Positions 6,358 through 26,094 of a stretch of 64,000 nt of DNA are shown one piece after another. The notes under the pieces were generated by a model. It ran no database searches. It had not been told where the DNA came from and was given only the letters and a program-made list of their open reading frames with translations. The stretch is from Ignavibacteria bacterium (lineage in GTDB: Bacteria; Bacteroidota; Ignavibacteria; UBA10030; SZUA-254). The stretch covers positions 17,257-81,256 of the forward strand of contig QJVY01000092.1 in NCBI GenBank assembly GCA_003235555.1. The letters run 5' to 3'. Within the stretch, counting starts at the first letter, position 1. The number at the start of each line of letters is the position of its first letter. The position numbers and the translations under genes were made by a program.

Positions 6358-6413
6358 AAGTACCGAAGAGAGTGCAACGGGCGTGCCAGTCCCGTCCGGG
6401 GGGCGAACGAACG

Positions 6414-6576: not shown

Positions 6577-7458
6577 TCAGAAAGGCCGCTCATAGTCAAA
6601 CGCGTTGATCTTGCCATTCATGTGGAGCGACTTGTCCGCAATCTTGCCCTGCGCGTCCACCACGCCGAGGTGGCAGTTACCGCAGGTGGTGAGCAATGCC
6701 GGCATGTGGCCGGCCGGGGGCAGCCCGTGGCAGCTGCCGCACGCCGCTTCCGCCGATCCGCCGGTCCAGACCGGGGTGGCGTTCGATCCGGTGATAAATG
6801 CTGATGTGTAGGCAAATTGCCTCGGAGAGGTCGCGCTGTCGGCCCTCCAGTTCCCGTGGCAGTAGGTGTCCGAACAGGTCAGGGCGGTGTAATCATGCGA
6901 GGGAGAGGGAACGATCCCGGCGCTGGCCGTGCGCGCCCGCGGTCCGTTCAGCGGGACCTCCGCCGGAAGGTCGGAGTCCACGTGGCCGGCCGCGTAGACC
7001 GACGTCGGCACGGTGTGGCACTCGTAACACCAGACGATCGAGGAGAGGTTTCCCCCCTGTACGTGCTTCTGGTGCGCGCCCACACCCGCTGCGGCGGTGG
7101 CGGTGTTGCCGGCGAGGTCCTCCGGCGGCGCGGGTGAGTTGGGTCCGCCGTGGCAGGTGGCGCAATTTTCAGGACCTCCTCCGTCCGTGTGGCACGTGCG
7201 GCAGGACACTTCCGCGACCCCGCCGGAGTAGTCGCTCCCGTGGCAGGTCCGGCACGACCGCATGTCCCACGAATCGGCCATGATGGCTTTCCCGTGGAAA
7301 TTCGCCGAGGAAGGGTTCGTCCAGCCCTCGGCGTGCACCGCGATCGCGGGGTTCGTTCCCGCGGGAAGTTTGTCCTTCAGCTCGGCGCACCCGCCGAACA
7401 TGGCCAGGGAGAGGACGGCCGCACTCAGCACCGGAACCAATGTAAGCTGTTTTTTCAT
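6577..7458 (-). CDS. Multiheme c-type cytochrome lipoprotein (6-7 hemes).
   Basis: Signal peptide with a lipobox-like LAMFGGC. CxxCH motifs CRTCH x2, CATCH, CYECH, CGSCH and CGNCH, plus one CX4CH (CSDTYCH). Confidence 0.85.
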   Translation of the reverse strand: MKKQLTLVPVLSAAVLSLAMFGGCAELKDKLPAGTNPAIAVHAEGWTNPSSANFHGKAIMADSWDMRSCRTCHGSDYSGGVAEVSCRTCHTDGGGPENCATCHGGPNSPAPPEDLAGNTATAAAGVGAHQKHVQGGNLSSIVWCYECHTVPTSVYAAGHVDSDLPAEVPLNGPRARTASAGIVPSPSHDYTALTCSDTYCHGNWRADSATSPRQFAYTSAFITGSNATPVWTGGSAEAACGSCHGLPPAGHMPALLTTCGNCHLGVVDAQGKIADKSLHMNGKINAFDYERPF

Positions 7459-7497
7459 CTGGATCGACTCATGCCCTTGATAATCGCCCTACCCCGC

Positions 7498-8613: not shown

Positions 8614-8667
8614 CGTACTCTTCTCCTCATGATAAAAATTTTCCGAAATCCTGTCCGCGGCCCGCGC

Positions 8668-9807
8668 CTACCTGCCCGAATGACAGAGTATGCACGTCGG
8701 GTCCTGTCCCTCGACGTCGTGGCACGACACGCACGATTCGATGTCGCGGCGTCCCATCTGCGCGTGCCTCCCGCCTCCCGAACCGGAGGCGATCATGACC
8801 CATCCGGCTTCGAAATGGGACTGCGGTTTGATCTTTCCCTCCGTCAGGATGCCGCCGTTCTGGTGGCAATCGGCGCAGAAGGCCTGACGATCGTGGCAGC
8901 CGGAGCAATCGATCATCCTGTTGCGGGCGTCGACCGGGTGCGTGAACCGGTAGTTCAGGTCGTGCGCCGCCTGGAGGCGGAGTTCGTCGGGCGAGTCCTT
9001 CAGGGACTGCCGGGCTCCGGGGACGGTCATCAGTCCCCTCGTCCCGCCGAAGCCCCTCAACTGGTCCCCGGTATGGCAGTCCTGGCAGAAACTTTCGGTG
9101 TGGCATGTCGAACAGGTGACGTCCATCGAGCCGAGGCGGACGGCCCTGTCGTGTTCCTTCGCGAACCCCGAGACGAGATGATTTTCGGGGATGAGGTTCG
9201 TGAAGTTCGAGTGGCACGTCTCGCAGTTCACCGACACCTGCTTTGCGGAATGGCAATCGACGCACATCGCCATCGCCGGCATGTGCGATTCTGTGCCACC
9301 CGTTCCGGAATGTGTCATTGCGCCCCCGGCGTCCCCGCCCTCACCACCATTCCCGGTGTCGACCGGGGGGAGGCCGCCGTGGCAGGTTTCGCAGGCTATG
9401 CCGCCGGTGGTCGCGTGTTTCTTGTGTGAAAAAATGAGATCCCGGGAGGGAAGGACCATGGGTTCGATCGCGTCGGGGTTCGTGTGGCAGTAGGAGCAGT
9501 CGTTCTCTATCGCCTCCCCGTGGCATGTTTCGCAGCTCTGGTGGTCCGGGATCAGCCTGTCCAGGGAGGATTCACTTTCGGGGGCGGCTGTGTGGCAGTC
9601 GGCGCAGGCGATTTCCCTCTCGACCACGTGGTTCTCATGTGAGAACATGACGCTCTTCCCGGGCTGCTGCTGTCCGGTTCTGTCCTGTGCGGCGGGTGTG
9701 GCGGCCGCGGACGGTTGTTTCATACCGGTGGCGACGAACAATATGGCAAGCGCGGAAACCGTGATGACGGCCGCGGTGTTCATGGTTTTTCTCATCCCGG
9801 GCGTCAT
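8668..9807 (-). CDS. Periplasmic dodecaheme cytochrome c.
   Basis: N-terminal signal peptide and twelve CxxCH motifs in 379 aa (CADCH, CETCH, CSYCH, CETCH, CVDCH, CETCH, CSTCH, CQDCH, CSGCH, CADCH, CVSCH, CILCH). Its start overlaps the upstream porin gene stop by 4 nt. Confidence 0.85.
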   Translation of the reverse strand: MTPGMRKTMNTAAVITVSALAILFVATGMKQPSAAATPAAQDRTGQQQPGKSVMFSHENHVVEREIACADCHTAAPESESSLDRLIPDHQSCETCHGEAIENDCSYCHTNPDAIEPMVLPSRDLIFSHKKHATTGGIACETCHGGLPPVDTGNGGEGGDAGGAMTHSGTGGTESHMPAMAMCVDCHSAKQVSVNCETCHSNFTNLIPENHLVSGFAKEHDRAVRLGSMDVTCSTCHTESFCQDCHTGDQLRGFGGTRGLMTVPGARQSLKDSPDELRLQAAHDLNYRFTHPVDARNRMIDCSGCHDRQAFCADCHQNGGILTEGKIKPQSHFEAGWVMIASGSGGGRHAQMGRRDIESCVSCHDVEGQDPTCILCHSGR

Positions 9808-11093
9808 AGTAATCCGAGCTGGTGGTGGAACCAGTAACTGACCTTCAGGAACCCCCGCAGGTCGCTGTCCATGAACCTGTTGTTCAGCATCTGGACCTGG
9901 ACATCGAAAGAGAAATGGTCGGCGGGCCTGACCACCGCCCCGAGAGATCCGGCGAACATCGTCTCATCCGGCGACCCCGCCTCGAGCCGGTAACTCGAGT
10001 AGGAAATTGCCGCGGTGGGAACGAGTTTTCTCTCGAGGAGGGGATACATCCCCTGGAGGTAGAACGAGCTCAGCTCTCCGGCGTAACCGTTGGACCCGCT
10101 GTAACTGACGGTGAAATACGTCGTGGTCAACCCCGCCGAGAGCCGGCGGCTGAGGTCTCCATCGTACCCCACGTACGCGAACCGCGCGGAGGCCCGGAGG
10201 GTGCGGGTGAACGCGTACTCCACGCCCCCCTCGTATTCCCGGACCGGCGACAGGGGAAACATGGTGAAAAACGAATTGTAGGGAACCGCGGGTTCGCGGT
10301 AGATGAAGTTCGCGAGGAAGGTGAACTGCGCGGTGATCGCGGCCCGGGCGTTGAGTTCGCCCCTGCGGGTCCGCTCGAGGTTCAGGTCGTAGTCGTAGCG
10401 GCCGTAGAACGATGTCCCGCTCCCCGCGTCGTGGGACGCGTCCACCCCGAACAGTTGCGTCGCCCTCGATCCCGGAGAAATCAGCACCATGACCGGGTTG
10501 AAGAGGGAATCCGCCCGGAGGGTTTCGTATTCCTGCCGTTCGATCCTGCGGTTCACGTAGCTCACGCCGAGGCGGGTACCCGGTGCGATTTCTCCCACCG
10601 CCTGCGCCCCGAGCAGAAAATTTTTGTCCAGGTCGCGGTTATGGTCGTAGACAAGGGAGCCCGGCACGTTCGACCCGCCGTATACTGAAAACGACAATTT
10701 GTTTTCGGCCGCCCTGATTTTGACGAAGCCGCCATCCACACCTCCGACACCCACGCCCGCGAAGACCGGCACCCGGCCAAGCCGGAGTTCAAACGTCCGA
10801 TCGCCGTTGCGATACTTCGCGAAGAGGTTCCGGACACGGAGCTCCGCCCCGTCGCCGATCGACTCGGAGAGGGACGCGGTCCCGAAGACCGACGTGGAGA
10901 GCGTGAAGTTCCCCTGGTTGACGTCCACCTGGAAATTCTGCATTCCCAGGAGAACGTTGCCGGAAGCGCCGACGGTGTCGAATTTTTCCCAGCCGTAGAG
11001 CGATGTGGAGAAGCGTCCGTTGATTTCCTGGGCGGCCGCGGGGAGGGCGAGCAGCACGATCCCGGCGACGAACGTCCGGAGTGCGGTGCGCAT
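9804..11093 (-). CDS. Outer-membrane beta-barrel protein, the putative porin of a porin-cytochrome conduit.
   Basis: Signal peptide MRTALRTFVAGIVLLALPAAAQE. Alternating hydrophobic beta-strand pattern throughout, with an aromatic C-terminal region (KVSYWF). No cofactor motifs. Start taken at the in-frame Met (11093); the ORF track extends to 11123. Confidence 0.55.
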   Translation of the reverse strand: MRTALRTFVAGIVLLALPAAAQEINGRFSTSLYGWEKFDTVGASGNVLLGMQNFQVDVNQGNFTLSTSVFGTASLSESIGDGAELRVRNLFAKYRNGDRTFELRLGRVPVFAGVGVGGVDGGFVKIRAAENKLSFSVYGGSNVPGSLVYDHNRDLDKNFLLGAQAVGEIAPGTRLGVSYVNRRIERQEYETLRADSLFNPVMVLISPGSRATQLFGVDASHDAGSGTSFYGRYDYDLNLERTRRGELNARAAITAQFTFLANFIYREPAVPYNSFFTMFPLSPVREYEGGVEYAFTRTLRASARFAYVGYDGDLSRRLSAGLTTTYFTVSYSGSNGYAGELSSFYLQGMYPLLERKLVPTAAISYSSYRLEAGSPDETMFAGSLGAVVRPADHFSFDVQVQMLNNRFMDSDLRGFLKVSYWFHHQLGLL

Positions 11094-11323
11094 GCTGGCC
11101 CCTGTGAGGGGGAATGCAATCATGAGAATGCTTTAGAAGTCCGATCGCCGAATTGGTGGTGTGACACTACCCTTACGATCATCCGAAGTGAATATCCGCA
11201 AAAAAACAAAAAGATACAATGGAAGTATTGAAGATTTTTACACTGTGCCGGGACGGATTATCGAAAATCCGACCACTTCGGTCGGAGAATAAACCTCCGG
11301 CGATATCCTTCCTCCCGGGGGTA

Positions 11324-11377
11324 GAAATAAAAATCGGACGCGCGAGGGGAGGGCCTCTTCCTCCGGAACGCGCGTCC
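11324..11377 (-). terminator. Rho-independent terminator of the first T9SS cytochrome gene.
   Basis: Minus-sense GGACGCGCG-(24 nt)-CGCGCGUCC, a 9-bp perfect GC stem, followed by GAUUUUUAUUUC. Confidence 0.6.
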
Positions 11378-11468
11378 GATCATCCACCAGTGTACAGATT
11401 CAAGACCGACTGCAGAGTATCGGCCTGTACGGGCCCCGGAAACCCGGGGCCCGCCGGTCCGTTTAAGA

Positions 11469-13586
11469 CTATTTCAGCAGGATCATTTTCTTCACGGAAC
11501 TGAACTCCGCGGTCTGCATCCGGTAGATATAGATACCACCGGCAACATCCTTTCCCGACCCGTCCCTGCCGTCCCAGGAGACCTGGTACACGCCCGGAGC
11601 GTAAGTCCCGTCCATGAGCGTTGCGACCCTGGCACCGAGGACGTTGAAGACTTCCACCCTCACTTCGCCGCTCTTCACCATCCCCACCTTAAAGGTTGTC
11701 GTCGGGTTGAAGGGGTTCGGGTAGTTCTGCGTCAGGACGTATTCCGCGGGTAGCGGTTCGTTCCCGGAGAAATCGATCCCGGTCAACTGGTTCACCGTTG
11801 TCTGCAGGAGTCCGATCACGTATTTGGGATTGTGGGCTCCATGGCTGTGGTCCTCCACGACGTAGAGGTAGTTCCAGTAGACCTGTTTGAGGAAGACGGA
11901 ATCCGGCTCCTCACCGATCAGCGCCCGCGTGATATCGGTGCTGCCGAAGGGGGGAAGCTGCATCGCGATCATGTCGAGGAGCCCATCCACCTCGTGCATG
12001 AACGGTTCGAGCGTTCCGTCCTTGTCGTAGTCGACCGCCGCGACGATATCCGAGAACTCGGTGATCCCCGTGTGGCATTCCACGCACTTGGTCACGTTGT
12101 TGTACTCGACGGAATCCGGGCCCTCGTACTCCATGTTCCAGCTGTGACCGCCGATCTGGTCGCGTGCGACGCTGCCGGTGTCGGGCGTCGGAGACATGTG
12201 ACACCCCACGCAGAGATCATCCACGAGCCGGTGGCCGATGCTGATGGGGATCTCCTGGCCGAAGGTATACCCGTTCTGGCCGAGGAAAACATCGGTCGCG
12301 CCGCGATGGTGCGGCCCCCTGAAACTGGACGCCCGCGTGTTGGGGATGTACGATTCGGGTTCGCGACGATATTTATGACAGTTGGTGCAGAGTTTCCCCT
12401 TCCCGAAGAAAGTCTCGCCGGCATAGGAATAGCCGTTCGCGAGGGTGTCGCTCCCCGGGGGTGTGACCCGGAGTTCGGTCGAGTGGGGATTGTGGCAGGT
12501 CTGACAGGTCATTTCGGAACGTGTCAGTTTGCTGTATCCCGACGATATCCTGTTGTCGAAAGGTTCGCCCTTGGTGAAAGCGACGAATCCCCCGCCGTCG
12601 TGGCAGCGGATACAGGCATCCAGCGTGTAGTTTGTGACGAGCGTGTCCGCGTCGGAGTCGTAACTTCCCGACCACGGTGGGTTGGCATGGCCGGAATTCG
12701 ACCACATCGAATAGAAATTGTGCCGCCACGGTTCATCGTGGCATTGTCCGCACATTTCCGCTTTCATGGTCTTCGGCTGGGTGCCGGGACCGGCATGCGC
12801 CGGATTTTTCGGGCCGTGGCATTGCTCGCATCCGATCCCTGAAAGAAGGGTCATCGTTTTTTTGTCGGTTGTGAGCAGGGAATCGTAGAGACCCGGCCTC
12901 CAGGGCATCCACTGCGTGTCCACGAATCCGACCGCCTGTTGGACTTCATCGAATCCGCCGTTATTGGCGCTGAGGTTGAACCCCGTCGTATGGCATTTGA
13001 AACAGGCCTGACCCCAGTACGAGCCGTTGTCGCCGTTCATGCCCTTCTCGAATTTCTTTGCGTGCCCCGATTCCGACCATGCGGCGTACACCTCTGGCTT
13101 CACCGACGAGTGGCACGTCTTGCAGTTGAATGCGCCCCCGCCCACGTCGTGGCGGTCGACGCCGATGAAATTCGCGGCGACGATGTTCACCGACGTGTCA
13201 ACTCCGCCGATCGTCAACCGGACACTGTAGGTACCGGCAGAATCGGTGTGCAATGTCGTCCACTGTGTGGTCGTGGAATCCAAAACGGCTGCGGAACCCG
13301 CCGGTTTCGAGAGGAGCTCCCAGAGGTAATCCGCTCCCGGGGCGTAGTTCTGTCCGTCGGAAACGTCCCACCCCGAGAGGAAGACACGCGTTCCCTTCCC
13401 CACAAGTGGGAGACCGGTGGTCACGTTGTCATGCTCGTTGGGGTTTTCGAAACCCATCTCGCCGAGCCGATGGGGGCTCATCGGTTCGATCTTGATTGCC
13501 GTCGCAGTCGTCTGCGCGGACACCCCGCCGACGGCCAGGAACAGAAAGAGAATGGAAAGGGTGGAAAACAGTATCATTTTAGCCAT
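11469..13586 (-). CDS. Extracellular nine-heme c-type cytochrome with a T9SS (Por) C-terminal sorting domain; paralog 1.
   Basis: Signal peptide. CxxCH motifs CKTCH, CFKCH, CEQCH, CGQCH, CIRCH, CQTCH, CTNCH, CVGCH and CVECH. The C-terminus ...LTQNYPNPFNPTTTFKV...IYIYRMQTAEFSSVKKMILLK is a Por_Secre_tail-type CTD. Confidence 0.85.
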   Translation of the reverse strand: MAKMILFSTLSILFLFLAVGGVSAQTTATAIKIEPMSPHRLGEMGFENPNEHDNVTTGLPLVGKGTRVFLSGWDVSDGQNYAPGADYLWELLSKPAGSAAVLDSTTTQWTTLHTDSAGTYSVRLTIGGVDTSVNIVAANFIGVDRHDVGGGAFNCKTCHSSVKPEVYAAWSESGHAKKFEKGMNGDNGSYWGQACFKCHTTGFNLSANNGGFDEVQQAVGFVDTQWMPWRPGLYDSLLTTDKKTMTLLSGIGCEQCHGPKNPAHAGPGTQPKTMKAEMCGQCHDEPWRHNFYSMWSNSGHANPPWSGSYDSDADTLVTNYTLDACIRCHDGGGFVAFTKGEPFDNRISSGYSKLTRSEMTCQTCHNPHSTELRVTPPGSDTLANGYSYAGETFFGKGKLCTNCHKYRREPESYIPNTRASSFRGPHHRGATDVFLGQNGYTFGQEIPISIGHRLVDDLCVGCHMSPTPDTGSVARDQIGGHSWNMEYEGPDSVEYNNVTKCVECHTGITEFSDIVAAVDYDKDGTLEPFMHEVDGLLDMIAMQLPPFGSTDITRALIGEEPDSVFLKQVYWNYLYVVEDHSHGAHNPKYVIGLLQTTVNQLTGIDFSGNEPLPAEYVLTQNYPNPFNPTTTFKVGMVKSGEVRVEVFNVLGARVATLMDGTYAPGVYQVSWDGRDGSGKDVAGGIYIYRMQTAEFSSVKKMILLK

Positions 13587-13647
13587 TGGTGGTACCTTCT
13601 GATTATGATTCCGATGGATGATAACGTGATGATTTTGACCACACTAC

Positions 13648-13663
13648 CGCAAAAATCATGCCG
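13648..13663 (-). promoter_or_regulatory. Sigma-54 (-24/-12)-type promoter candidate for paralog 1.
   Basis: Minus-sense CGGCATgatttTTGCG, with GG and GC separated by 10 nt, about 62-77 nt upstream of the start at 13586. Confidence 0.4.
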
Positions 13664-13811
13664 TTGAAAATTTCAACACTTTTGGGGAAATTGGCGAGTT
13701 TTTATACTCTGAAAAGGGGGGAATTTCTCAAATCTGAGGAGTTGGGTGTGTTAACCCTCTGATGCACGGATCGGGGCGGAAGGACCCCCTTTCGGGGATA
13801 TCATGGGTGGA

Positions 13812-13862
13812 GACAAAAATCGGACGCGTGAAAGAGGGACTTCTCCTCCGCAACGCGCGTCC
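13812..13862 (-). terminator. Rho-independent terminator of the second T9SS cytochrome gene; a duplicated copy of the 11324-11377 element.
   Basis: Minus-sense GGACGCGCG...CACGCGUCC stem (1 mismatch) followed by GAUUUUUGUC. About 75 nt of flanking sequence is shared with the paralog-1 terminator. Confidence 0.5.
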
Positions 13863-13952
13863 GATCATCCACCAACGTACAAATATCTTATTTGACCGGA
13901 GAGTGCCGGCCCCGAGGGCCCCGCGTTCGCGGGGCCCTCGGCCCGATTACAA

Positions 13953-16052
13953 TCATTTCAGCAGGATCATCTTCTTCACGGAGCTGAATTCCGCGGTCTT
14001 CATCCGGTAGATATAGATGCCGCCCGCCGCATCCTTTCCGGAGACATCCTTGCCGTCCCACGTTACCTGGTAGACGCCGGGAGGATAGGTCCCCTCCATG
14101 AGTGTCGCAACCCGGGCGCCCAGGACGTTGAACACCTCAACCGTGACCTCTCCCCCCTTCGCCATCCCCACTTTCATGGTCGTGGTCGGGTTGAAGGGGT
14201 TCGGGTAGTTCTGCGTCAGGATATACTCCGACGGAACCGGCTCGTGGCCGCTGAAATCCACGCCCGTGAGGTTGCTGAGGGTCACCTGGAGCAAACCGAT
14301 GATATATTTCGGGTTGTGCGCCCCCTTGCTGTTGTCTTCCTTCACGTACGCGTAGTTGTAGTAGACCGCTTTCATCCGCGCGGAATCGGGATCCGCTTCG
14401 ATCAGGGCGAAATCGATGTCCGTGCTTCCGAACGGCGGCAGCCCCAGCTCCACCATTTCGAGGAGGCCTTCGACTTCCATCTGGAAGGGTTCGGTGGTGC
14501 CGTCCATGTCGTAGTCGAAGCCCGCGACGATATCGCTGAACTTGGTGATACCGGTATGGCACTCGACGCACTTGGTGATGTTGTCGTACTCGACTCCACC
14601 TTCGACATACTTCTGCGTCCAGCTGTGGCCGCCGATCTTGTCGCGGGCCACGGTGCCGGTATCCGCCGTCGCCGACATGTGGCAACCGACGCAGAGGTCG
14701 TCCACCAGCCTGTGGCCGATGCTGTTGGTCAGCGTCTGGCCGAAGGTGTAACCATTCTGCCCGAGGATAACGTCGGCCGCGCCCCGGTGGTGCGGACCGA
14801 AGTGGCTGGAGAGGCGCCCGAGGACGTATGTTTCAGCGTCCCTCCGGTATTTATGGCAGTTGACGCAGATCTTGCCCTTGCCGAAGTTGAACGCCGAGTA
14901 GTCGTACCCGTTGCCCAGAGTATCGCTGGCGGCGGGGGCAACTCTCAACGAAGCATCGTGCGGATCATGGCATGTCTGGCAGTTGATCTTCGTGTGCGTC
15001 AGTTCGCCATATCCCGACGAAATCCGGTTGTCGAAGGGTTCGCCCTTCGTGAACGCCACGAAACCCGCGCCGTCGTGACAGCGGATGCAGGTGCTCAGGC
15101 CGTATTCGGTGACCGGGTTGGCGCCGTCGCTGTCGAAACTACCCGACCAGACCGCCTCGGCGTGGACCGAGTTTTCGAATTCGGAGACCTTGTTGTGCCG
15201 CCACGGTTCGTCGTGGCACTGTGCACAGAGAAGGAAGTCCATCGATTTGGGCTGCGTCCCGGCTCCCGCGTGCGCGGGGTTTTTCGGACCGTGGCAGTTT
15301 TCACAGCCGATACCGGCGACCATGCTCAGCTTGGCCTGGGGGGTGGTGAGCAACGAATCATAGAGGCCGGCCCTCCAGGGTGTCCACTCGGTGTCCACGA
15401 ATCCGAGCGCCTGGGCGACGTCGTCGAACCCGCCGTTGTTCGCGAACTCGTTGTAACCGACCGTGTGGCATCCCCAGCAGGACGGACCCCAGTGGTCGCC
15501 CCACACGTTGTTCAATCCGTTCTCCCACATCATCGCGTGCCCGGAACCGCTCCACTTGCTGACGATCTCGGGGGTGGCCCCGTTGTGGCATGTGAGGCAG
15601 TTGAACGCCCCGCCGCCCACGTTGTTCCTGTCGGCTCCGATGTAGTTGGCCGCAATGATATTGATGCTCGTGTCCTTGCCGCCGATCGTCAGTTTCACGG
15701 TGTAGGTTCCGGCCGAATCGGTATGCAGTGAGGTCCATTGCATCGTGGTCGAATCGAGTATCGCCGCCGAGTTCGCCGGCCGCGCGGTCAGCTCCCAGAG
15801 GTAATCTGCCCCCGGCAGGAACTCATCACTACTGACGTCCCAGCCCGAGAGGTACACCCAGGTGCCTTTTCCCACGACGGGCAGGCCCGACGTCGTGTTA
15901 CCGGCGCCGTTGGCGGATTCGAACCCCATCGTCTCGAGACTATGAGGGGTCAGCGCCTCGATCCTGATGGCAGTCCGCTGGGCGAAGAGATCTCCCCCGG
16001 TTGCGACCAGGATACACATCATGATTACCGCAAACAGTATCGATTTTTTCAT
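13953..16052 (-). CDS. Extracellular nine-heme c-type cytochrome with T9SS C-terminal sorting domain; paralog 2.
   Basis: 699 aa, collinear with 11469-13586. Nine CxxCH motifs. The CTD ...LTQNYPNPFNPTTTMKV...KKMILLK is near-identical to that of paralog 1. Confidence 0.85.
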   Translation of the reverse strand: MKKSILFAVIMMCILVATGGDLFAQRTAIRIEALTPHSLETMGFESANGAGNTTSGLPVVGKGTWVYLSGWDVSSDEFLPGADYLWELTARPANSAAILDSTTMQWTSLHTDSAGTYTVKLTIGGKDTSINIIAANYIGADRNNVGGGAFNCLTCHNGATPEIVSKWSGSGHAMMWENGLNNVWGDHWGPSCWGCHTVGYNEFANNGGFDDVAQALGFVDTEWTPWRAGLYDSLLTTPQAKLSMVAGIGCENCHGPKNPAHAGAGTQPKSMDFLLCAQCHDEPWRHNKVSEFENSVHAEAVWSGSFDSDGANPVTEYGLSTCIRCHDGAGFVAFTKGEPFDNRISSGYGELTHTKINCQTCHDPHDASLRVAPAASDTLGNGYDYSAFNFGKGKICVNCHKYRRDAETYVLGRLSSHFGPHHRGAADVILGQNGYTFGQTLTNSIGHRLVDDLCVGCHMSATADTGTVARDKIGGHSWTQKYVEGGVEYDNITKCVECHTGITKFSDIVAGFDYDMDGTTEPFQMEVEGLLEMVELGLPPFGSTDIDFALIEADPDSARMKAVYYNYAYVKEDNSKGAHNPKYIIGLLQVTLSNLTGVDFSGHEPVPSEYILTQNYPNPFNPTTTMKVGMAKGGEVTVEVFNVLGARVATLMEGTYPPGVYQVTWDGKDVSGKDAAGGIYIYRMKTAEFSSVKKMILLK

Positions 16053-16393: not shown

Positions 16394-16936
16394 TTATTTC
16401 TTCGGAACCCGGTGCTCGATCTGCGGCCACATCTTGGCGTATTCGAATTTCTTCGCCGTCGGGCTCTTCTCGTTGTGGCATGTGACACAGAGCGCCGTGA
16501 TCGCCTTCTCGTCCTCGTACATCAACAGGCCGGCTTTTTCGGCTTTCTTCGCGTCCTTCATCGTCGCCATGTTCTTGTATCCAGATCCTGCACCGTGGCA
16601 CGATTCACACTGTACACCGTCCTTGACGTCGAATTTCTTGTCGAGCAGTTTGGCATCGGCGGTGATCGTGTGGCATCCCAGACACTCGGGTGTTTCAACG
16701 GCCTTCGTCTTGAATCCCTTCTTGGTGGCGATGGCGTCCGCTTCCTTCGTCAGGAGCACACTGTAGGCCTCGGAGTGTTTGCTCTTCGACCAGATCTCGA
16801 ATTGTTTACCCTGCTTTTCAGTATTGTGGCACATCTTGCACGTCGTCGTGCCCACGTATGTGTTCTGGGCGCTCGTGAGGGATGACAACACGAAGATGAG
16901 GCCGGCCAGGAGGGCGATGATTGTGAATCTGCTCAT
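16394..16936 (-). CDS. Periplasmic tetraheme c-type cytochrome.
   Basis: Signal peptide MSRFTIIALLAGLIFVLSSLTSAQ. CKMCH, CLGCH, CESCH and CVTCH in 180 aa. Confidence 0.8.
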   Translation of the reverse strand: MSRFTIIALLAGLIFVLSSLTSAQNTYVGTTTCKMCHNTEKQGKQFEIWSKSKHSEAYSVLLTKEADAIATKKGFKTKAVETPECLGCHTITADAKLLDKKFDVKDGVQCESCHGAGSGYKNMATMKDAKKAEKAGLLMYEDEKAITALCVTCHNEKSPTAKKFEYAKMWPQIEHRVPKK

Positions 16937-17216: not shown

Positions 17217-17633
17217 TCAATTCACGGAGTTCAGGATCTTCCGGACGAGTGAAACCATAAAGTTGAGGTTGAACGGTTTTTCAACGAAATAGTCCACCAT
17301 CCTGCTTTTCCCCACCTCTTCGAGTGACTCCTCCCCGTGTTCGATCGCCAGTACGAGGGGGGTCCTCCCCGAGATCGTCTTGATCCGCACCGCAAGTTCC
17401 AGGCCGTCCATCCCGGGGAGGTGGTAGTCGCTGATCACAAGGTCGACCGGTCCCTCGTTGAATTTCCGGAGAGCATCCTCGCCGCATTCCACGACATCTG
17501 GATCATAGCCGGCGCGCCCGAGGGCGTTCGCCATTGACCAGCCCAGGAGCGCTTCGTCTTCGACGATCAGGATCTTCTTGACATCCCGTGAGGGTACGGG
17601 TGGCGGGAGGGAATATGGTGAATTATTCAGCAC
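17217..17633 (-). CDS. Stand-alone response-regulator receiver (CheY-like).
   Basis: KKILIVEDE...DLVISDYHLPGMDGLEL...K receiver motifs. 138 aa with no output domain. Confidence 0.75.
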   Translation of the reverse strand: MLNNSPYSLPPPVPSRDVKKILIVEDEALLGWSMANALGRAGYDPDVVECGEDALRKFNEGPVDLVISDYHLPGMDGLELAVRIKTISGRTPLVLAIEHGEESLEEVGKSRMVDYFVEKPFNLNFMVSLVRKILNSVN

Positions 17634-17804: not shown

Positions 17805-19165
<1,361 letters not shown>

Positions 19166-19166
<1 letters not shown>

Positions 19167-20689
19167 TACGATTTGTCCTTCGCGATCTCCCCGGGATCGA
19201 CGGGGAGGCGTACACGGCAGGTCGTCCCTGCCTGGTCCCCGCTTTCGAGGGAGATGGTACCATGGTGCTGTTCAACGATGCGCCGGGAGATGGTCAGCCC
19301 CAGACCGGTCCCCTGGTGCTTGGTCGTGTAGAACGGCCTGAAAATATTTTCACGTTCGGCCGGGGCGATCCCCTTCCCGGTGTCGCGGACGGTCACCGTC
19401 ACCGACCCGTTCCCGCCCTCGGTCGCGACGCTCACCCGCCCACCGTCGTCGGCGGCCTGCACGGCGTTTAAAATGACGTTCCAGAGGAGCTGCTGGAGGA
19501 GTTTCCTGTCCGCCGTCAGCCGCGGCAGCTCCCTGTCGAGCGACAGGTCGACCGTCACGTTTTTCTTCAACGCCTGCGAGGTCATGATCGAGACCGTCCG
19601 GTCGATGATGCCGTTCAGGTCGGTGAGGTCGAACCTGGGCGGGGAGGGCCTCGCGTAGCTCAGCAGGTCGTTGACCGCGAGGTTCATCCGCTCCATCTGC
19701 ACCATCATCTCCTGGAGTATCGGTTTGTTCGGGTCGACGTCGGCCAGGTCTGAATCGATCACCTGGAGCGCCCCCAGGACCCCCGCCAGCGGGTTTCGGA
19801 TTTCATGCGCCATGCTGGCCGCCATCTCACCGGTGGTCGCCAGCCGGTCGGCGTGCTCCAGCTGTTCATGGTGGAGTTGATGGAGGCGCCCGTGGGCCTC
19901 GTTCAACCGCTCCACCAGTGTGTTGAACGTGGTGATCAGGTCGGAAATTTCATCGTTTCTCGGAGACGGTTCCAGCGTGGAAAAAATCACCGGCTGCCCC
20001 TTTTCGACCCCCGCCAGCTGGTTCTGCAGCGTCCCCATCCGCTGCCGCAGAGTGGAAACGGGCCGGATCACCAGGACGAGCAGCGCCCCGGAAATGACCA
20101 GGCCGATTCCGCCGAACGTCACGATCGTCATCAGGATGTTCATCGTCCGGTGGTTCATGGACGCCTCCTGGATGTGGCCCATGGTGATCTTGACGGCCAT
20201 GTATCCGAGGACAGGTGCGGTGCCCGCGTGACATCCCGAGCAGCTCGGTTTCCTCTCGAGCGGCGTGAGGACGTACTGGAAGGGGGTCCCATCTTCCGTC
20301 CGCGAGAGGAACATCCCCCCGGGGAAACCTTCGCTCTCCCGGTACTCCGAGATCCGGAAGACCCGTCCGGAACTGTCCGGTACCGTGCTCACGCTGATTC
20401 CACCGTCGGGTTTGAGTAAGAACAGTGCCGCGATGTGGCCGGTGGAGTCTATCGTCCGCATGGCCGCCTGGAGGTGACTTTTTTCACCCTGGAGCATCAT
20501 GAATTCCACCACCCCCCTGCCGTACCGTGCGAGCGTGTACGCCTTGTCCCGTCCGTACTCGTTCAACATCTCCGTGCCCGTCCTGTAGGCGAAGTACGCG
20601 AAGCTGCCGCCGGCCACGACCAGGGCCGCCGCGACCGCCGCGATCATCTTCCGCCCGACGGAGTTGAATATTCGGGGGAGCATGGTCAT
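19166..20689 (-). CDS. Sensor histidine kinase with a heme-c (CxxCH) motif in its periplasmic sensor domain.
   Basis: TM1 at about residues 15-35 and TM2 at about 183-208 flank a ~145-aa periplasmic domain containing CSGCH. The cytoplasmic part carries HisKA (HEIRNPL) and HATPase_c. The start overlaps the ccmF stop by 4 nt, and the stop overlaps the NtrC start by 1 nt. Confidence 0.85.
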
Positions 20690-22944
20690 ACCATGGTCAC
20701 TGCGTCCGACTTCAGCCGTTTGACAAATGCGAGCAGGGTACCCCCGATGATGAACACGACGCCCGTCCAGAGCACCATCATCATCGGGATCATGCTGACA
20801 TCCAGCAGGAGCGCGGTGTTCTGCGGGGAGGACTCGTCCCCCTCGAAACCATGGAATTCCAGCAGGATTTTTTTGGCCTCGACCTGCATGCCGGCCAGGA
20901 TGACCTGGGGTTGCACCGTCCCCTTCGAGGGGTTGACCAGGGCCGGCAGGTCGACGGGCCCCGATTCCCGTTCACCGTTGCGGTTGAACGCGACCGTGGG
21001 GACGACGGAGTGGTCGTTCCCGTGGACGGGAACGTTGAGAACCGCTCCCACCATCATCGCGCCGGACTCGCTGTGCTGGGTCATGTCGAACTTCCGGAAC
21101 TCGATCTCGTAGCCATTGATGGATTTCTTCTCCCCCATGACGAGCTCCAGGGACGGATGGTTGTGGCCGCCCCCCGAACCCTGAAGTTCCATCGGGGAGA
21201 GGTAGAGGTCCTTGAGGGGCAGGACCCTGATGTGCGGCTCGCGCATGACACCCTTGTTGTATTCGCTGTAATAGAGTTTCGGCGTGGCCGCGAACTTCGA
21301 GACCCCGTCGGAGATTTCCAGGACGACGACGTTTTTCGCGTCGGGGGCCGGCTCCATGCCCCTGAAGGTGACGTCATAGCCGAACACACTCTGAGGCTCG
21401 TTCTCCTTCAACAGCACCTTCCGTGATTCCGTGAAGTTCCCCGATCCGACGATCCCGAGCATCAGCAGGGCCGCTCCGATGTGGCCGATCGGCCCGCCGA
21501 GCCCCAGGAACCCTGAGCGGTACTGCCTGAATGCAATGATCGAATTGCTGATCAGCGCGAATGCCGACATCGCGGTGAACAGGAGCATCATCGGCTCGGT
21601 GACGCCGGCCACGAACGCGATGACACCCCCAAGGACCGTCAGCACCAGCGGCAGGGAAAGCCGCCTCAGCAGCGACGCGGTATTGTCCCCCGCCCAGCCG
21701 AGAAAGGGTGTCACGCCCAGCAGGAGCGCCATCACGATCGCCACCGGCAGGTTGACCCTGTTGTAGAAGGAGATGTCCACCTGGGATGCCTTTCCCACCA
21801 GCCCGGTGAGGATCGGCGACGACATTCCGACGAAGGTGAACGCCGCGCAGGCCGAAAGCGCGTAGATGCTGAGCACGAGGAAGATTTCCCGGTAGAACGA
21901 GTGGTGGTCCACCGGCGGCGATTTGATTTCCCGGAACCGCCTGAAAAACATCCCGAATCCGAAGAGCGCTGTCGCCAGCATGACCGCGACGAGGTAGTTG
22001 TTGATTCCGAGGTCGACGAAGGAGTGCACGGAAAAATCCGCGAGGACACCGCTGCGGGTCAGGAAGGTCGCATAGAGGACCAGTAAAAAAACGATGATGG
22101 CGAGGAACATGTTCGTCCGCCGGAGGGACCCCCTTCCCCTCTCGACGACCATTCCGTGGATGAGCGCCAGCATCATCAGCCAGGGGACCAGGGAGGAATT
22201 TTCCACCGGGTCCCACCCCCAGTACCCGCCCCATCCCAGGACTTCGTAGGCCCAGAATCCTCCGATGATGATCCCCGCGCCGAGCATGGTCCCCGCAAAG
22301 AGCGTCCATCTGAACCCGAACGTCTTCCAGGCATCGTATTTCCGCGTCGTGAGGCCGGCCATCACGAGCGCGAAGGGAAAGATCGCCGCGGCGTAGCCCA
22401 CGAACAGAATCGGCGGATGGATGGCCATCCAGGGGTCCTGCAGGAGTGGGTTCATCCCCTGCCCGTCCGGCGGTACCATCTTTGTCATCTCGAACGGGCT
22501 CTGTACCAGCATCAGGAGATGTAAAAACGCGATATAGAGGCACACCACCGCGGGCGCGACCCCGGACCTGATCCCCTGCTTATGGATTAAAACGAGTCCC
22601 ATCAGCGCCACCATCAGGGCCCAGAGGAGGAATGTTCCTTCCTGTCCCGCCCAGAAAGAGGAGATGAGGTAGAGCATCGGCAGCGAACGTGAACTGTAAT
22701 GCGCCACGTAGGCGTATTCGAAGGAGTGGGTGAGGAGATGATAGTAGAGCAGGATCGACGAAGCGATGACCGACACGGTCGCGACGTGGTAGAGCTGTAT
22801 CGCGGCACGCGGCGGCGTCCCCCCTCTATTCCCCCTTTGCGCCCGGTTTTTCGGGTCCTGTCTGCCCGGTGCGGTGAAGAAAAACCACGCGGCGCCGAGC
22901 GACGCCAGGAACGTGATGAGTATGGTCAACTGGCCGGAATTCAT
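20686..22944 (-). CDS. ccmF: Cytochrome c-type biogenesis heme lyase CcmF/NrfE family.
   Basis: Polytopic, 752 aa. Diagnostic CcmF motifs: WAGQEGTFLLWA, NPLLQDPWMAIHPPILFVGY and the WWD region WAYEVLGWGGYWGWDPVENSSLVPWL, followed by a CcmF C-terminal domain. Confidence 0.85.
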   Translation of the reverse strand: MNSGQLTILITFLASLGAAWFFFTAPGRQDPKNRAQRGNRGGTPPRAAIQLYHVATVSVIASSILLYYHLLTHSFEYAYVAHYSSRSLPMLYLISSFWAGQEGTFLLWALMVALMGLVLIHKQGIRSGVAPAVVCLYIAFLHLLMLVQSPFEMTKMVPPDGQGMNPLLQDPWMAIHPPILFVGYAAAIFPFALVMAGLTTRKYDAWKTFGFRWTLFAGTMLGAGIIIGGFWAYEVLGWGGYWGWDPVENSSLVPWLMMLALIHGMVVERGRGSLRRTNMFLAIIVFLLVLYATFLTRSGVLADFSVHSFVDLGINNYLVAVMLATALFGFGMFFRRFREIKSPPVDHHSFYREIFLVLSIYALSACAAFTFVGMSSPILTGLVGKASQVDISFYNRVNLPVAIVMALLLGVTPFLGWAGDNTASLLRRLSLPLVLTVLGGVIAFVAGVTEPMMLLFTAMSAFALISNSIIAFRQYRSGFLGLGGPIGHIGAALLMLGIVGSGNFTESRKVLLKENEPQSVFGYDVTFRGMEPAPDAKNVVVLEISDGVSKFAATPKLYYSEYNKGVMREPHIRVLPLKDLYLSPMELQGSGGGHNHPSLELVMGEKKSINGYEIEFRKFDMTQHSESGAMMVGAVLNVPVHGNDHSVVPTVAFNRNGERESGPVDLPALVNPSKGTVQPQVILAGMQVEAKKILLEFHGFEGDESSPQNTALLLDVSMIPMMMVLWTGVVFIIGGTLLAFVKRLKSDAVTMV

Positions 22945-23037
22945 GATGTATTCTCGTGATCGGTATTGGAGTGCACGTCTTCATTCGAGGGAAAGCGACA
23001 TCAAAATCCAGAATTTCTTCCCTTTCCGGGCAATAAT

Positions 23038-23052
23038 GCAATCTTTATGCCA
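23038..23052 (-). promoter_or_regulatory. Sigma-54-type promoter for the ccmF-kinase-NtrC operon.
   Basis: Minus-sense TGGCATaaagaTTGC, about 95-108 nt upstream of the ccmF start at 22944. Confidence 0.45.
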
Positions 23053-23202: not shown

Positions 23203-24564
23203 CTATTTTTCGGTCGATATGGAAAGTTCTTTGATCCTACGGTATAACGTGGGCAGGCTGATTTGAAGTGATTTCGCCGTCTTTTCCTTGTCGAAATCGT
23301 TTTTCCTGAGGACGGCGACGATGTATTCCCTGGCGAGGTCGTTCACCACCTGGTCGAGGGATTTGTCCCCGTCGGCGGAGGGGACGGGCGGATAATTGTG
23401 GAAGGTGTCGGGGAGATCGGCAACGGTAATGGAGTCCCCCTTCGCGAAGATGACCGCACGCTCCACGATATTCTCCAGTTCCCGGACCTCCCCTCTCCAC
23501 GGGTGGTGGATCAGCAGGCGCATGACCTCCTGGTCGACCCCCTGCATCTTTCTGCCCATCTCCGACGAAAATTTTTCGAGGAAATGGTTGACCAGTATCG
23601 GGATGTCTTCCTTTCTTTCCGTCAGCGACGGCAGCCGGATTTCGACAATGTTGAGACGGTAGAAGAGGTCCTCGCGGAACCTTCCTGCTTCGATTTCTTT
23701 GCGGAGGTCCCGGTTGGTCGTCGCGATGAACCTCACGTCGACGGCCTGGGGTTCCGACGTCCCCACCGGAACGATTTCCTTCTGCTCGATCGCGCGCAGG
23801 AGTTTCACCTGGAGCTGGACCGGCATCTCGCTGATCTCGTCGAGCAGGAGCGTTCCCCCGTCGGCGGCCTTGAAGTAGCCCCCGCGGTCGGCGAGCGCCC
23901 CGGTGAAGGATCCTTTTTTATGGCCGAAGAGTTCGCTCTCGATGAGAGATTCGGGGATCGCGCCGCAGTTGACCGCGATGAAGGGCCTGTCGGCCCGCGG
24001 GCTGTTGGCATGGACCGCCCTCGCCACCATCTCCTTCCCCGTTCCGCTCTTCCCGGTGATGAGGACGGTCCCGTCGGTCGCCGAGATCCGCCGGACCGTG
24101 TCGAAGATCCGTTCCATCGCGGGACTCTGCCCGATGAGGTTCTTGAAGTCCACCCCACCGCTCGCTTCCTCGCGAAGGTACTGGTTTTCCCAGATGAGTT
24201 TCCTGTGCTCGAGCAGCCGCCGGATTTTGAGAGTGAGCTCGTCGAATTCGATCGGCTTCAGGATGTAGTCGTTCGCACCCTTGCGCAGCGCCGCGATAGC
24301 GGTCTCCATCGACCCGTACGCGGTGATGATCACGACGATGGTCTGGGGGCTGAGCTCCTTGATTTTTTCGAGGAGTTCCATCCCCTTCATTTCCGGCATC
24401 TCGAGGTCGGTGATCACCAGGTCGTACGATTTTTCGACGAACTTGTCGTAGGCCACCCTCCCGTTCGGGGCCTCCTCGACGCGGAACCCCTCCTTCTTCA
24501 GGATGAACGATGCGGATTCCCTGATGATCTGTTCGTCGTCGACGATGAGTATCGTGTCTGCCAT
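23203..24564 (-). CDS. Sigma-54-dependent response regulator (NtrC family), second copy.
   Basis: Receiver domain (ILIVDDE..DLVITDLEMP), then an AAA+ sigma-54 activator domain (GKSGTGKE..), then HTH. 453 aa. Confidence 0.9.
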   Translation of the reverse strand: MADTILIVDDEQIIRESASFILKKEGFRVEEAPNGRVAYDKFVEKSYDLVITDLEMPEMKGMELLEKIKELSPQTIVVIITAYGSMETAIAALRKGANDYILKPIEFDELTLKIRRLLEHRKLIWENQYLREEASGGVDFKNLIGQSPAMERIFDTVRRISATDGTVLITGKSGTGKEMVARAVHANSPRADRPFIAVNCGAIPESLIESELFGHKKGSFTGALADRGGYFKAADGGTLLLDEISEMPVQLQVKLLRAIEQKEIVPVGTSEPQAVDVRFIATTNRDLRKEIEAGRFREDLFYRLNIVEIRLPSLTERKEDIPILVNHFLEKFSSEMGRKMQGVDQEVMRLLIHHPWRGEVRELENIVERAVIFAKGDSITVADLPDTFHNYPPVPSADGDKSLDQVVNDLAREYIVAVLRKNDFDKEKTAKSLQISLPTLYRRIKELSISTEK

Positions 24565-24591
24565 GGTTATCGCTTGATGATGTGCACGGTG

Positions 24592-26094
24592 TCAGATGTC
24601 CGTCTTCCGGGGAGCAGCGGGACGCCCGGGCGCCCCCGGCTGCGGTTTCACGCCCCCGTGGAGCGGCAGTGTGATCGTAAATGTCGTCCCCTCCCCCACG
24701 AGGCTGTCCACCCGGATTTCTCCATCGAAACTCTTGATGATCCCGTAACTGATCCAGAGACCGAGGCCGGTGCCCTCCCCCACCTGTTTCGTCGTGAAGA
24801 ACGGCTCGAAGATCTTGGCGAGGTGTTCGTCGCTGATCCCCCTGCCGTTGTCCGAGATTTCGGTGACGACGGAGTCCCCGTCGGCGCGGGTCCTGCAGAT
24901 GATTTTCCCCGTCCGTTCTCCGGGCGGCACCGCCGCGAATTTATCATCCACCGCGTCCACGGCGTTGATCAGTACGTTAACGAACACCTGCTGGATCTGG
25001 TCCGAGACCACCGCCAGGCGCGGCAGGTTGTCCGCGGTGTGGACTTCGAGGGCGACCGTTTTCGCCTTCCTGGCCACACCGACGATGGCGGTCGCTTCCC
25101 GCAGGCACGCGTTGACGTCCGTCAGCTGGATTTCGTAGTTCGAGCGGCGGGAGAAATCGACCAGGTCACGGATGATCCGCGATATCCTGTTCACCTGGTT
25201 TTTGATGAGTTCAAGCTTGTCCCGCGTGAAGGCGTCCTCGGTCGTCCTTTCCAGCACCTGCACCAGCGAGGAGATGGACGTGAGCGGATTGCCCACTTCG
25301 TGCGCGATTCCGGCCGTCAGCAATCCCATGCTCTCCATCTTCTGCGCCTGGAGGAGATGCTTCTCGAGGGATTTCTGTTCGGTGATGTCCCGGTGGATGC
25401 CGAAATATCCGACCACCGTACCGTCGCCGTCGAGGATCGGCGAAATCAGCAACTGTGTATGGAATGGTTCCCCGCCGCGTTTCCGGTTCTCCACCTCCCC
25501 CGTCCAGACCTTCCCGGCCTTGATGGTCTCCCACATCTTCTTCCAGAATATCGCGGGGTGTTTCCCGCTGGAAAAGATGTTCGGGTTCCTGCCGATGAGT
25601 TCCGCGCCGGAATACCCGCTCGCGGCCTCGAATGCGGGGTTGACGTAGATGATCCGGCCTTCGGGGTCAGTGATTTCGAGGGGGTTGACGGTGTGGTGTG
25701 CGAGGTTCGAAAACCTCAGGAAGTCGAGGTCTTTCTTCTTCTCTTCCGATATATCGCGGCCGATAGCCAGGATGACGGCTCCGTGGTCTCCCTTCAGGGG
25801 GGAAAACGAAAACGACACTACCCGTTCGTCCCCGTCATCCCCTGCGAGCGTCAATTCGGTCCCGTCCGTACCACCGGTCCCGGACTCGTCCATCGCCCTC
25901 CTGAAAGCCGCCCGTGTCGATGGTGAGAGGAACTCCTCCATAGACCTGCCCGCAGGACTCATCCTCCCTGCTCCGAGGGTCTTCATGGTGGTGGTGTTCA
26001 GGTGCACGATGGAGCCGTCGGGGTTCAGGAGGAGGCAGAAATATGGAATTGCGTCGAGCAGGGATACCGGGATGGAATCCCGTCTCGCGCTCAT
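24592..26094 (-). CDS. PAS-domain sensor histidine kinase (cytoplasmic).
   Basis: Two PAS-like regions, HisKA ([10 protein letters not shown]) and HATPase_c. No TM segments. Lies immediately upstream of the NtrC-type regulator. Confidence 0.85.

Follow-up and report, generated by a model that had tools for sequence, protein, structure and literature searches.

Described Systems Closest to the Locus

How bacteria that respire metals or electrodes sense redox conditions outside the cytoplasm, and hence choose among pathways, is only partly understood. We analyzed a 64,000-nucleotide stretch of DNA from an Ignavibacteria bacterium (GenBank assembly GCA_003235555.1, contig QJVY01000092.1, positions 17,257 to 81,256 of the forward strand), which we call the window, and in it the gene of a membrane-bound sensor histidine kinase whose periplasmic domain carries a single c-type heme motif, CxxCH. 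The sensor domain very likely belongs to a known family of heme-c Cache domains, and gene order and promoter sites suggest that the kinase controls the multi-heme cytochrome genes beside it in response to redox state.

Heme-c periplasmic sensors have been known in kinases since 2006–2008, from Geobacter and Anaeromyxobacter (PMC8396549, PMC3831638), and Geobacter sulfurreducens has twelve signal transducers with c-heme motifs (PMC8396549). Crystal structures exist for the sensor domains of GSU0935 and GSU0582 (PDB 3B42 and 3B47; Pfam family PF21563). The GSU0935 crystal shows one heme with His144–Met60 ligation. Oxidation leaves both sensors high-spin and reduction makes them low-spin, probably as Met60 binds; carbon monoxide (CO) and nitric oxide (NO) displace this residue (PMC8396549). 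DcrA of Desulfovibrio vulgaris, which we compared by description, resembles the kinase in being a membrane transducer with a covalent periplasmic heme, proposed to sense redox or oxygen (PMC8396549), and differs from it in that its output is chemotaxis.

The Geobacter sensors and the DUF3365/Tll0287 domains were brought together in 2026 as sCache_heme, defined as a Cache fold with an inserted helix that carries a strictly conserved CXXCH (Deshpande, Xing, Gumerov, Crane, and Zhulin; PMC12889525). The family has thousands of members and is present in more than half of the genomes in several phyla (PMC12889525). An earlier note on this DNA, made from the letters alone, had called heme-c sensor domains rare; the published surveys show them to be common (PMC12889525, PMC8396549), and a CxxCH in the periplasmic sensor domain of a kinase is, by itself, a known phenomenon that will not surprise specialists.

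A second described system bears on the output of the kinase. BccR (GSU0598), a sigma-54 response regulator of Geobacter, is needed for strong induction of the operon GSU0597–0593 at falling redox potential; this operon has a sigma-54 promoter and encodes the single receiver GSU0596 and the cytochromes CbcBA (bioRxiv 10.1101/2021.04.15.440034). The neighbor of BccR by locus tag, GSU0599, is listed among two-component proteins and carries two c-heme motifs (PMC8396549, PMC3831638). The BccR paper makes no mention of this kinase (bioRxiv 10.1101/2021.04.15.440034), and in the searchable literature we found neither a description of a sensor upstream of BccR nor anything that directly connects a kinase with a heme sensor to sigma-54 regulation of cytochromes. 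In distant lineages, gene order ties a heme-c Cache kinase both to a regulator of this type and to clusters of cytochrome genes, which makes the kinase a testable candidate for the sensor.

A Histidine Kinase with One Periplasmic CxxCH Motif

The kinase gene and the parts of its product, with transmembrane helices abbreviated TM1 and TM2, are as follows.

19166..20689, minus strand: sensor histidine kinase gene, 507 amino acids (aa) (open reading frame, translation, Pfam); order of parts TM1, predicted periplasmic heme-c Cache domain, TM2, HAMP, HisKA, HATPase_c
20585..20647, minus strand: TM1, about residues 15–35 (Kyte–Doolittle hydropathy; one continuous helix in the AlphaFold2 model)
20138..20584, minus strand: periplasmic sensor domain, residues 36–184, 149 aa, predicted single Cache domain of sCache_heme type
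20495..20497, minus strand: codon of Met65, predicted distal (sixth) heme ligand
20228..20242, minus strand: CSGCH, residues 150–154, with predicted thioether bonds at Cys150 and Cys153 and His154 as predicted proximal ligand
20063..20137, minus strand: TM2, about residues 185–209 (hydropathy), with RPVSTLRQR next on the cytoplasmic side
19898..20071, minus strand: HAMP linker, residues 207–264 (PF00672, E 7e-5, 23.5 bits against a cut-off of 25)
19646..19831, minus strand: HisKA dimerization and phospho-acceptor domain (PF00512, E 7e-13)
19196..19510, minus strand: HATPase_c catalytic domain (PF02518, E 1e-28)

By Pfam and motif the protein has both hallmarks of a classical HisKA-type kinase, an H-box (HEIRNP) with the phospho-acceptor His295 (codon 19805–19807) and a HATPase_c domain. 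Hydropathy places the two transmembrane segments at about residues 15–35 and 185–209 with 149 residues between them, in agreement with the earlier note, which had two such segments around a periplasmic domain of about 145 residues. The flanks on the other side of each helix are positively charged (+3/0 for residues 1–14 and for residues 209–223). The ATP-using core that follows TM2 must be cytoplasmic, and therefore residues 36–184 are periplasmic. The domain is extracytoplasmic and flanked by transmembrane helices, and the AlphaFold2 model described below shows a helical hairpin. Hydropathy, flank charges, and the kinase core after TM2 thus all put the motif on the periplasmic side, where the note had placed it.

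The kinase contains exactly one CxxCH, the CSGCH that had drawn attention to it, and the peptide quoted at the time, LTPLERKPSCSGCHAGTAPVLGYMAVKI, is present. Two of the three cysteines in the protein lie within the motif. From the non-cytochrome composition of the window (Cys 0.70%, His 2.0%), the chance expectation is 5e-4 CxxCH motifs per 507 aa.

Conservation, Homology, and Predicted Fold of the Sensor Domain

We carried out an exhaustive HMMER scan of 1.84 billion cluster representatives with residues 30–190 as query. The scan yielded 42 proteins at E ≤ 1e-3 (17 of these at E ≤ 1e-10), nearly all of them kinases of about 500 aa with the layout of the query. CxxCH was found in 40 of the 42 and stood at the aligned position in the 39 related kinases; the exceptions were one fragment that ends ahead of the motif and a protein designated P0027. 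Counted by column over the query and 41 aligned homologues, the counts were 40 of 41 for each of C150, C153, and H154 and 39 of 41 for Met65, and the homologues that keep the motif share 21–38% identity. In alignment A1, comprising 35 sequences with 19–37% identity to the query, C150, C153, and H154 are the only invariant columns, and M65, G96, and P210 are nearly invariant (full-protein numbering). A word-indexed homologue search returned four to five proteins, with the single sequence and with a profile alike, and here too the close relatives that cover the region retain the motif (RKAGCSSCHAG, RKPECYACHAG). The earlier note had named absence of the motif from orthologues as evidence against its reading; orthologues and distant homologues alike retain it, 40 of 41 in all. 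Since the fixed residues are only Cys-x-x-Cys-His and one Met, the site looks like a His/Met c-type heme site. On the invariance of the columns we rejected a chance occurrence or a relic.

Among homologues that span the full domain, CxxCH is missing only from P0027, a protein of 202 aa that ends after TM2. The motif site reads PDPDASAHAS there, Ile replaces the conserved Met, and the protein may be a heme-free derivative of the sensor.

Profile searches connected the domain to known structures. With hmmsearch against the PDB, the A1 profile matched 3B42 (GSU0935 sensor, E 4.3e-14) and 3B47 (GSU0582 sensor, E 1.7e-11), colinearly and over the whole domain, and hhalign of A1 against the GSU0935 sequence gave a probability of 98.1% (E 1e-13, identity 18%). 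Individually, 25 of the 35 family members matched PF21563 (best E 3e-11), and 17 of 35 matched the Tll0287-like family PF11845, weakly. The kinship with Geobacter heme-c sensors that the earlier note had suggested is thus a significant profile homology to two crystal structures. His154 aligns with the proximal His144 of GSU0935 and Met65 with the distal Met60 (residues 110 and 26 of the 3B42 chain); the two are 89 residues apart in the kinase vs. 84 in GSU0935. By this alignment the kinase has the distal Met on the N-terminal helix that characterizes the GSU0582/GSU0935 subgroup, with the ligation itself a prediction.

An AlphaFold2 model built with A1 (mean predicted local distance difference test, pLDDT, 93.3; predicted template modeling score, pTM, 0.81) gave a predicted single Cache/PDC fold, with a long N-terminal helix and a five-stranded antiparallel sheet. 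The order is a long helix continuing TM1, a helix, two strands, a loop, two strands, the short CxxCH helix, a fifth strand, and a helix into TM2 (model residues, with H for helix and E for strand: H2–56, H59–70, E75–81, E86–90, E115–121, E124–134, H137–141, E149–158, H160–200). CSGCH sits on the short helix (model residues 137–141) between strands four and five, as in 3B42 and 3B47. Foldseek searches of the PDB returned the Cache/PDC sensors WalK, KinD, DctB, CitA, and PctA, with 3B42 at rank 2. The earlier note had looked for a PAS-like or four-helix fold with a distal His or Met ligand. The predicted distal Met stands, aligned with Met60, and the four-helix option gives way in the AlphaFold2 and Foldseek results to a single Cache (PDC) domain with CxxCH on an inserted short helix; the same results rule out a cytochrome-like fold.

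We conclude with high confidence that the sensor domain is a divergent member of sCache_heme, a heme-c Cache domain, and we predict that its heme is covalently bound through Cys150 and Cys153. Like the GSU0935 and GSU0582 sensors, it lies between two transmembrane helices followed by HAMP, aligns with them over its whole length, and has its CxxCH on the short helix that precedes the last beta strand and a Met on the N-terminal helix. The Geobacter proteins differ in having a methyl-accepting chemotaxis output, whereas the kinase has HisKA/HATPase output to a sigma-54 activator; and in their Desulfuromonadales hosts, as against an Ignavibacteria/Bacteroidota-like metagenome-assembled genome (MAG). 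In crystals the Geobacter sensors form a domain-swapped dimer. As an extracytoplasmic single Cache domain with a CXXCH helix and a signaling fusion, the domain resembles Cluster 2 of the sCache_heme authors (PMC12889525). Elsewhere in that family the heme iron is held differently: Tll0287 and a P. putida protein have Cys/His ligation and a P. azotoformans protein has no sixth ligand from the protein (PMC12889525), whereas the kinase subfamily keeps its Met.

Gene Order Around the Kinase and in Related Loci

The genes on either side of the kinase that enter the argument are as follows.

20686..22944, minus strand: CcmF/NrfE-like heme lyase homologue, 752 aa, first gene of the operon (PF01578, PF16327)
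17805..19166, minus strand: NtrC-type response regulator with receiver (REC), sigma-54 AAA+, and HTH_8 domains (Pfam, NCBIfam)
17217..17633, minus strand: single-domain receiver, 138 aa (PF00072)
16394..16936, minus strand: periplasmic tetraheme cytochrome (c554-like), 180 aa, four CxxCH (PF13435)
6577..16052, minus strand: cytochrome cluster with two 9-heme cytochromes, a 439-aa Cys-free protein, and 12-, 5-, and 6-heme cytochromes (CxxCH counts, Pfam)

The kinase is the middle gene of a translationally coupled trio of CcmF-like protein, kinase, and sigma-54 activator. The stop codon of the CcmF/NrfE-like gene overlaps the kinase start (ATGA), and the start of the regulator overlaps the kinase stop by one base; this regulator is presumed to be the cognate partner of the kinase. 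The neighboring secreted proteins carry at least 45 CxxCH motifs between them. The gene of the tetraheme cytochrome is a candidate target, and its product could be the redox partner of the heme in the sensor; the CcmF/NrfE-like protein may be a heme lyase dedicated to the cytochrome cluster. Adjacency of the kinase to a sigma-54 activator and multi-heme cytochromes is as the earlier note had described it. The CcmF/NrfE-like protein scores 267 bits against TIGR00353, far under the cut-off of 569 (NCBIfam). It also contains a WGGYWGWDPVEN motif.

We compared eight related loci: L001/L004 and L002, which are close; L005 (contig CAYVEO010000006.1, labeled Planctomycetia), with a kinase 33% identical; and L057–L061, five metagenome contigs with sensor identity of 25–35%. 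The order kinase, sigma-54 regulator, single receiver, and then multi-heme cytochromes holds in all eight. The regulator directly follows the kinase in every case, and the receiver is always downstream of the regulator, immediately in seven loci and after three intervening open reading frames in L005. Cytochrome-maturation genes (CcmF-like or ResB/CcsA) lie near the cassette in six of the eight, NHL-repeat proteins and proteins of about 550 aa without a Pfam match occur in five of the eight, and a small 4-heme cytochrome is present in L002, L005, L057, L060, and L061. More distant members with two heme motifs, P0034 and P0046, adjoin molybdopterin oxidoreductase/NrfD operons, and from these contexts the wider group seems to control anaerobic respiratory modules. 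What may be new here is the conserved linkage of the subfamily to sigma-54 regulators and cytochrome clusters across phyla, of which we came across no description in the searchable literature.

Two of the related loci have peculiarities of their own. In L005, an open reading frame at 6852–9980 encodes 1042 aa with 42 CxxCH motifs; it lies immediately upstream of the kinase gene and overlaps it, and ResB/CcsA-like genes flank it. In L001/L004 (Ignavibacteria MAG contig_56271), the orthologous kinase, CcmF-like, and regulator genes are each called as two or more genes, the kinase as 142 + 364 aa and the CcmF-like protein as 543 + 186 aa, with the regulator truncated to 375 aa. This looks like frameshift errors of long-read assembly rather than real pseudogenes.

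Judged by published description and gene layout, the BccR system appears to be the closest functional analogue. In both cases an NtrC-type sigma-54 regulator adjoins a sensor with periplasmic c-heme motifs, and −24/−12 promoter elements precede a single receiver and c-type cytochromes. The systems differ in their target, since CbcBA of Geobacter is an inner-membrane bc-type quinol oxidoreductase (di-heme b plus seven-heme c), whereas the genes here appear to encode periplasmic and surface multi-heme c cytochromes; no gene at 6577–29039 matched a b-type cytochrome family in Pfam. They differ further in that GSU0599 has two heme motifs vs. one in the kinase and in that bccR is divergent from its target.

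Sigma-54 Promoter Elements of the Cytochrome Cluster

The window was scanned with the pattern TGGCAC-N5-TTGCW, allowing up to two mismatches. The elements upstream of cluster genes, one of them weaker than this limit, and the hemerythrin gene behind the last of them are as follows.

23037..23052, minus strand: sigma-54 type −24/−12 element TGGCATAAAGATTGCA, 92 nucleotides (nt) before the CcmF-like/kinase/regulator operon; conserved with L002 and L004
17667..17682, minus strand: sigma-54 type element TGGCATAAAGTTTGCC, 33 nt before the receiver gene; conserved in L002 and L004
17050..17065, minus strand: sigma-54 type element TGGCACGAAATATGCA, 113 nt before the 4-heme gene; at equal distance in L002
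16117..16132, minus strand: sigma-54 type element TGGCATAATTCTTGCC, 64 nt before the 9-heme gene 13953–16052; at equal distance in L002
13648..13663, minus strand: weaker sigma-54 type element CGGCATGATTTTTGCG, 61 nt before the 9-heme gene 11469–13586; three mismatches, GG-N10-GC kept
6373..6388, minus strand: sigma-54 site TGGCACGCCCGTTGCA, a perfect match, 15 nt before the hemerythrin-domain gene 5839–6357
5839..6357, minus strand: hemerythrin HHE-domain gene

The evidence lies in the placement and conservation of these sites and not in their total count. Five of the seven minus-strand matches are intergenic and stand directly upstream of the cluster's minus-strand genes, where by our estimate about 0.5 would be expected. 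Matching promoters were found in six of the eight related loci. In L005, L057, L059, L061, and L004 a perfect or near-perfect site stands ahead of the receiver gene; in L057 the kinase and the CcmF-like gene have perfect sites as well. When the intergenic regions were aligned with those of L002 and L004, the −24/−12 blocks emerged as conserved islands, along with upstream blocks. Because the sites are placed upstream of cluster genes and conserved in relatives, the cytochrome cluster is very probably a sigma-54 regulon.

Two of the conserved upstream blocks in the L002 and L004 alignments could be activator sites or sites of integration host factor. One, TGGGTGAAAAAACCCACC, is an inverted repeat in 22945–23202, just upstream of the operon promoter; the other, TGGGTCATTTGACGCA, contains GTCA-N2-TGAC and lies in 17634–17804, about 90 nt upstream of the receiver promoter. 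A further palindrome, TTTTCA-N4-TGAAAA, has two exact copies in the window vs. 0.05 expected, one at 6479–6494, about 90 nt further upstream of the hemerythrin promoter, and one at 23115–23130, upstream of the kinase-operon promoter, and is a candidate for a shared activator site. Two other shapes were tried and set aside: TTGAAA-N2-TTTCAA found no support in the window as a shared palindrome, and the two matches of TTGAAA-N-TTTCAA were not significant.

Proposed Mechanism and Alternatives

On the model that we favor, one heme would be held covalently by Cys150 and Cys153, attached by the periplasmic maturation system, with His154 as proximal ligand and Met65, at the end of the long N-terminal helix away from the membrane, as an exchangeable distal ligand. 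Reduction of the heme, or a small ligand that displaces the Met, would alter its spin state and coordination, by analogy with GSU0582 and GSU0935. The N-terminal helix, which is continuous with TM1, would move, and the signal would pass through TM2 and HAMP to the HisKA/HATPase core at His295. Gene order and promoters suggest that the kinase would then phosphorylate the translationally coupled NtrC-type activator 17805–19166 and that the activator would drive the sigma-54 promoters of its own operon, the receiver gene, the tetraheme gene, and the genes of surface or outer-membrane multi-heme cytochromes. Most likely, the kinase would read the redox poise of the pool of periplasmic cytochromes, and the machinery of extracellular electron transfer (EET) would thus be induced when needed.

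The analysis shows what the domain is, that the arrangement is conserved, and that the promoter elements are there; we infer the heme attachment, the nature of the signal, and the wiring from kinase to regulator to promoters, and we regard the full model, redox sensing that controls the cytochrome cluster, as probable, with moderate confidence. Redox poise is favored because the family conserves the Met, a feature shared with the Geobacter sensors, in which spin state tracks redox state, because the conserved regulon is electron-transfer hardware, and because BccR of Geobacter is a functional analogue. The CcmF-like gene in the kinase operon and the CxxCH-rich secreted proteins nearby were counted toward heme-attachment capacity.

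A broader proposal is more tentative, and we put it forward as a possibility that we do not expect to hold in full. As a cassette of three genes, the heme-c Cache kinase, the sigma-54 activator, and the single receiver might be a cross-phylum master switch for EET hardware, in which the sensor heme would equilibrate with the periplasmic cytochrome pool, perhaps through the tetraheme cytochrome, and report redox potential by binding and release of Met65. The loci that carry the cassette are labeled Ignavibacteria/Bacteroidota and Planctomycetia, with the rest on unassigned metagenome contigs. If this were true, the cassette would fill the vacant sensor position above BccR-type regulators, and its sequence would serve to flag regulated EET in lineages not yet cultured.

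Several observations weigh against the redox model; they concern, in turn, the identity of the domain, the promoters, the signal, and the wiring. Searched alone against Pfam, the sensor domain matched only PF21563 (Mcp40H-20_sensor), around the motif, at E 0.11–0.24 and 12–13 bits against a cut-off of 27, and its identity to GSU0935 is no more than 18%. The query protein alone likewise had no match to PF11845 in Pfam, and the sensor domain alone gave only noise in a phmmer search of the PDB. Given the matches at profile level, these single-sequence nulls do not make the domain new. Location, fold, motif position, and profile homology all agree with sCache_heme, and the query's own Pfam gathering score is alone in failing to, which makes it a divergent member that routine annotation would leave unlabeled. 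Since such annotation labels only the kinase core, surveys of heme-based periplasmic sensors would undercount divergent sCache_heme domains. On the promoter side, the −24/−12 matches in the whole window numbered 11 vs. 15 expected, which is not above chance, and with the scan pattern L058 and L060 had no site.

As to the signal, in the main rival reading the same heme-c Cache domain would be a periplasmic sensor of NO (or CO), in which the gas, and not redox potential, would set kinase activity by displacing Met65 from the ferrous heme. The P. azotoformans protein, the only signaling-type sCache_heme studied biochemically, binds NO tightly (koff ∼6e-4 per second) but does not form a stable complex with O2, and the authors propose that sCache_heme domains fused to signaling modules are NO sensors (PMC12889525). 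NO binds to GSU0582 and GSU0935 whether they are oxidized or reduced, and CO binds to their reduced form; the gas takes the place of Met60 (PMC8396549). In the window, the hemerythrin gene 5839–6357 has a perfect −24/−12 site and shares TTTTCA-N4-TGAAAA with the kinase operon. Hemerythrin-like proteins are often linked to NO or oxidative stress. However, the P. azotoformans protein has no sixth ligand of its own, whereas the family of the kinase keeps the Met (39 of 41), like the redox-linked sensors of Geobacter. The conserved neighbors are multi-heme cytochromes, NHL-repeat proteins, and cytochrome-maturation genes, a context that points to control of respiratory cytochromes, and none of the loci examined showed genes for NO reductase, flavohemoglobin, or hybrid-cluster protein. 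We therefore consider gas sensing rather unlikely and retain redox poise as the favored signal.

As to the wiring, the CcmF-like/kinase/regulator operon has another two-component pair as its direct upstream neighbor.

23203..26094, minus strand: second two-component pair, a cytoplasmic kinase at 24592–26094 (500 aa, two PAS domains) and an NtrC-type sigma-54 activator at 23203–24564 (453 aa)

The heme-c sensor could be real and yet the cytochrome genes be run by this PAS kinase and its regulator, leaving the heme kinase with its own operon only or with distant targets. Two NtrC-type regulators within 7 kb make this conceivable, as the second could act on some or all of the promoters, and different promoters carry different upstream palindromes. 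The second pair is also found upstream in the related contig L001. Against this, no second sigma-54 regulator was called in L057–L061 or L005 within the fetched stretch (mostly 10 kb on each side), and these loci still have the order kinase, regulator, receiver, and cytochromes, most of them with −24/−12 sites as well. We judge such a division of labor improbable, and the coupled regulator 17805–19166 stays our preferred activator of the cluster; the two activators may also converge on the same cytochrome regulon.

The query's score below the Pfam threshold of the heme-Cache families might suggest that the domain is an ordinary ligand-binding Cache domain and that its CxxCH binds no heme but is a metal site, a relic, or a redox switch of the disulfide kind. 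We consider this highly improbable. Both Cys, the His, and the distal Met are retained across homologues at 21–38% identity; over its full length the domain shares homology with two crystal structures in which the aligned motif carries covalent heme; and the domain is periplasmic, with a homologue of heme lyase encoded in the kinase operon.

Other Features of the Neighborhood

The two 9-heme cytochromes at 11469–13586 and 13953–16052 (minus strand; 699 and 705 aa) are paralogous and end in FlgD_ig and Por_Secre_tail domains, the sorting signal of the type IX secretion system (T9SS), and the same pair is found in L002. In the source organism, which is Ignavibacteria-like, the T9SS may thus export multi-heme cytochromes and anchor them at the surface. 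T9SS sorting domains occur on several neighboring proteins, which fits an Ignavibacteria/Bacteroidota lineage. The closest genomic relatives are MAGs labeled Bacteroidota bacterium (75–81% identity) and uncultured Ignavibacteria bacterium (70%). A genome scan with the single protein gave mostly kinase-core matches (e.g., in Gemmatimonadota) and was uninformative on the sensor.

Within 8668–11123 (minus strand), the 439-aa protein of the cluster has a signal-like N terminus, no Cys, and no Pfam match, and its gene overlaps the start of the 12-heme gene. It is a possible porin, in a layout that resembles porin–cytochrome conduits. A similar Cys-free protein of 430–460 aa adjoins multi-heme cytochromes in L002 and L057.

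Upstream of the regulatory genes, at 26245–26739 (minus strand), lies a gene for a secreted Haem_bd (PF14376) protein of 164 aa with one CxxCH, which is conserved in L001.

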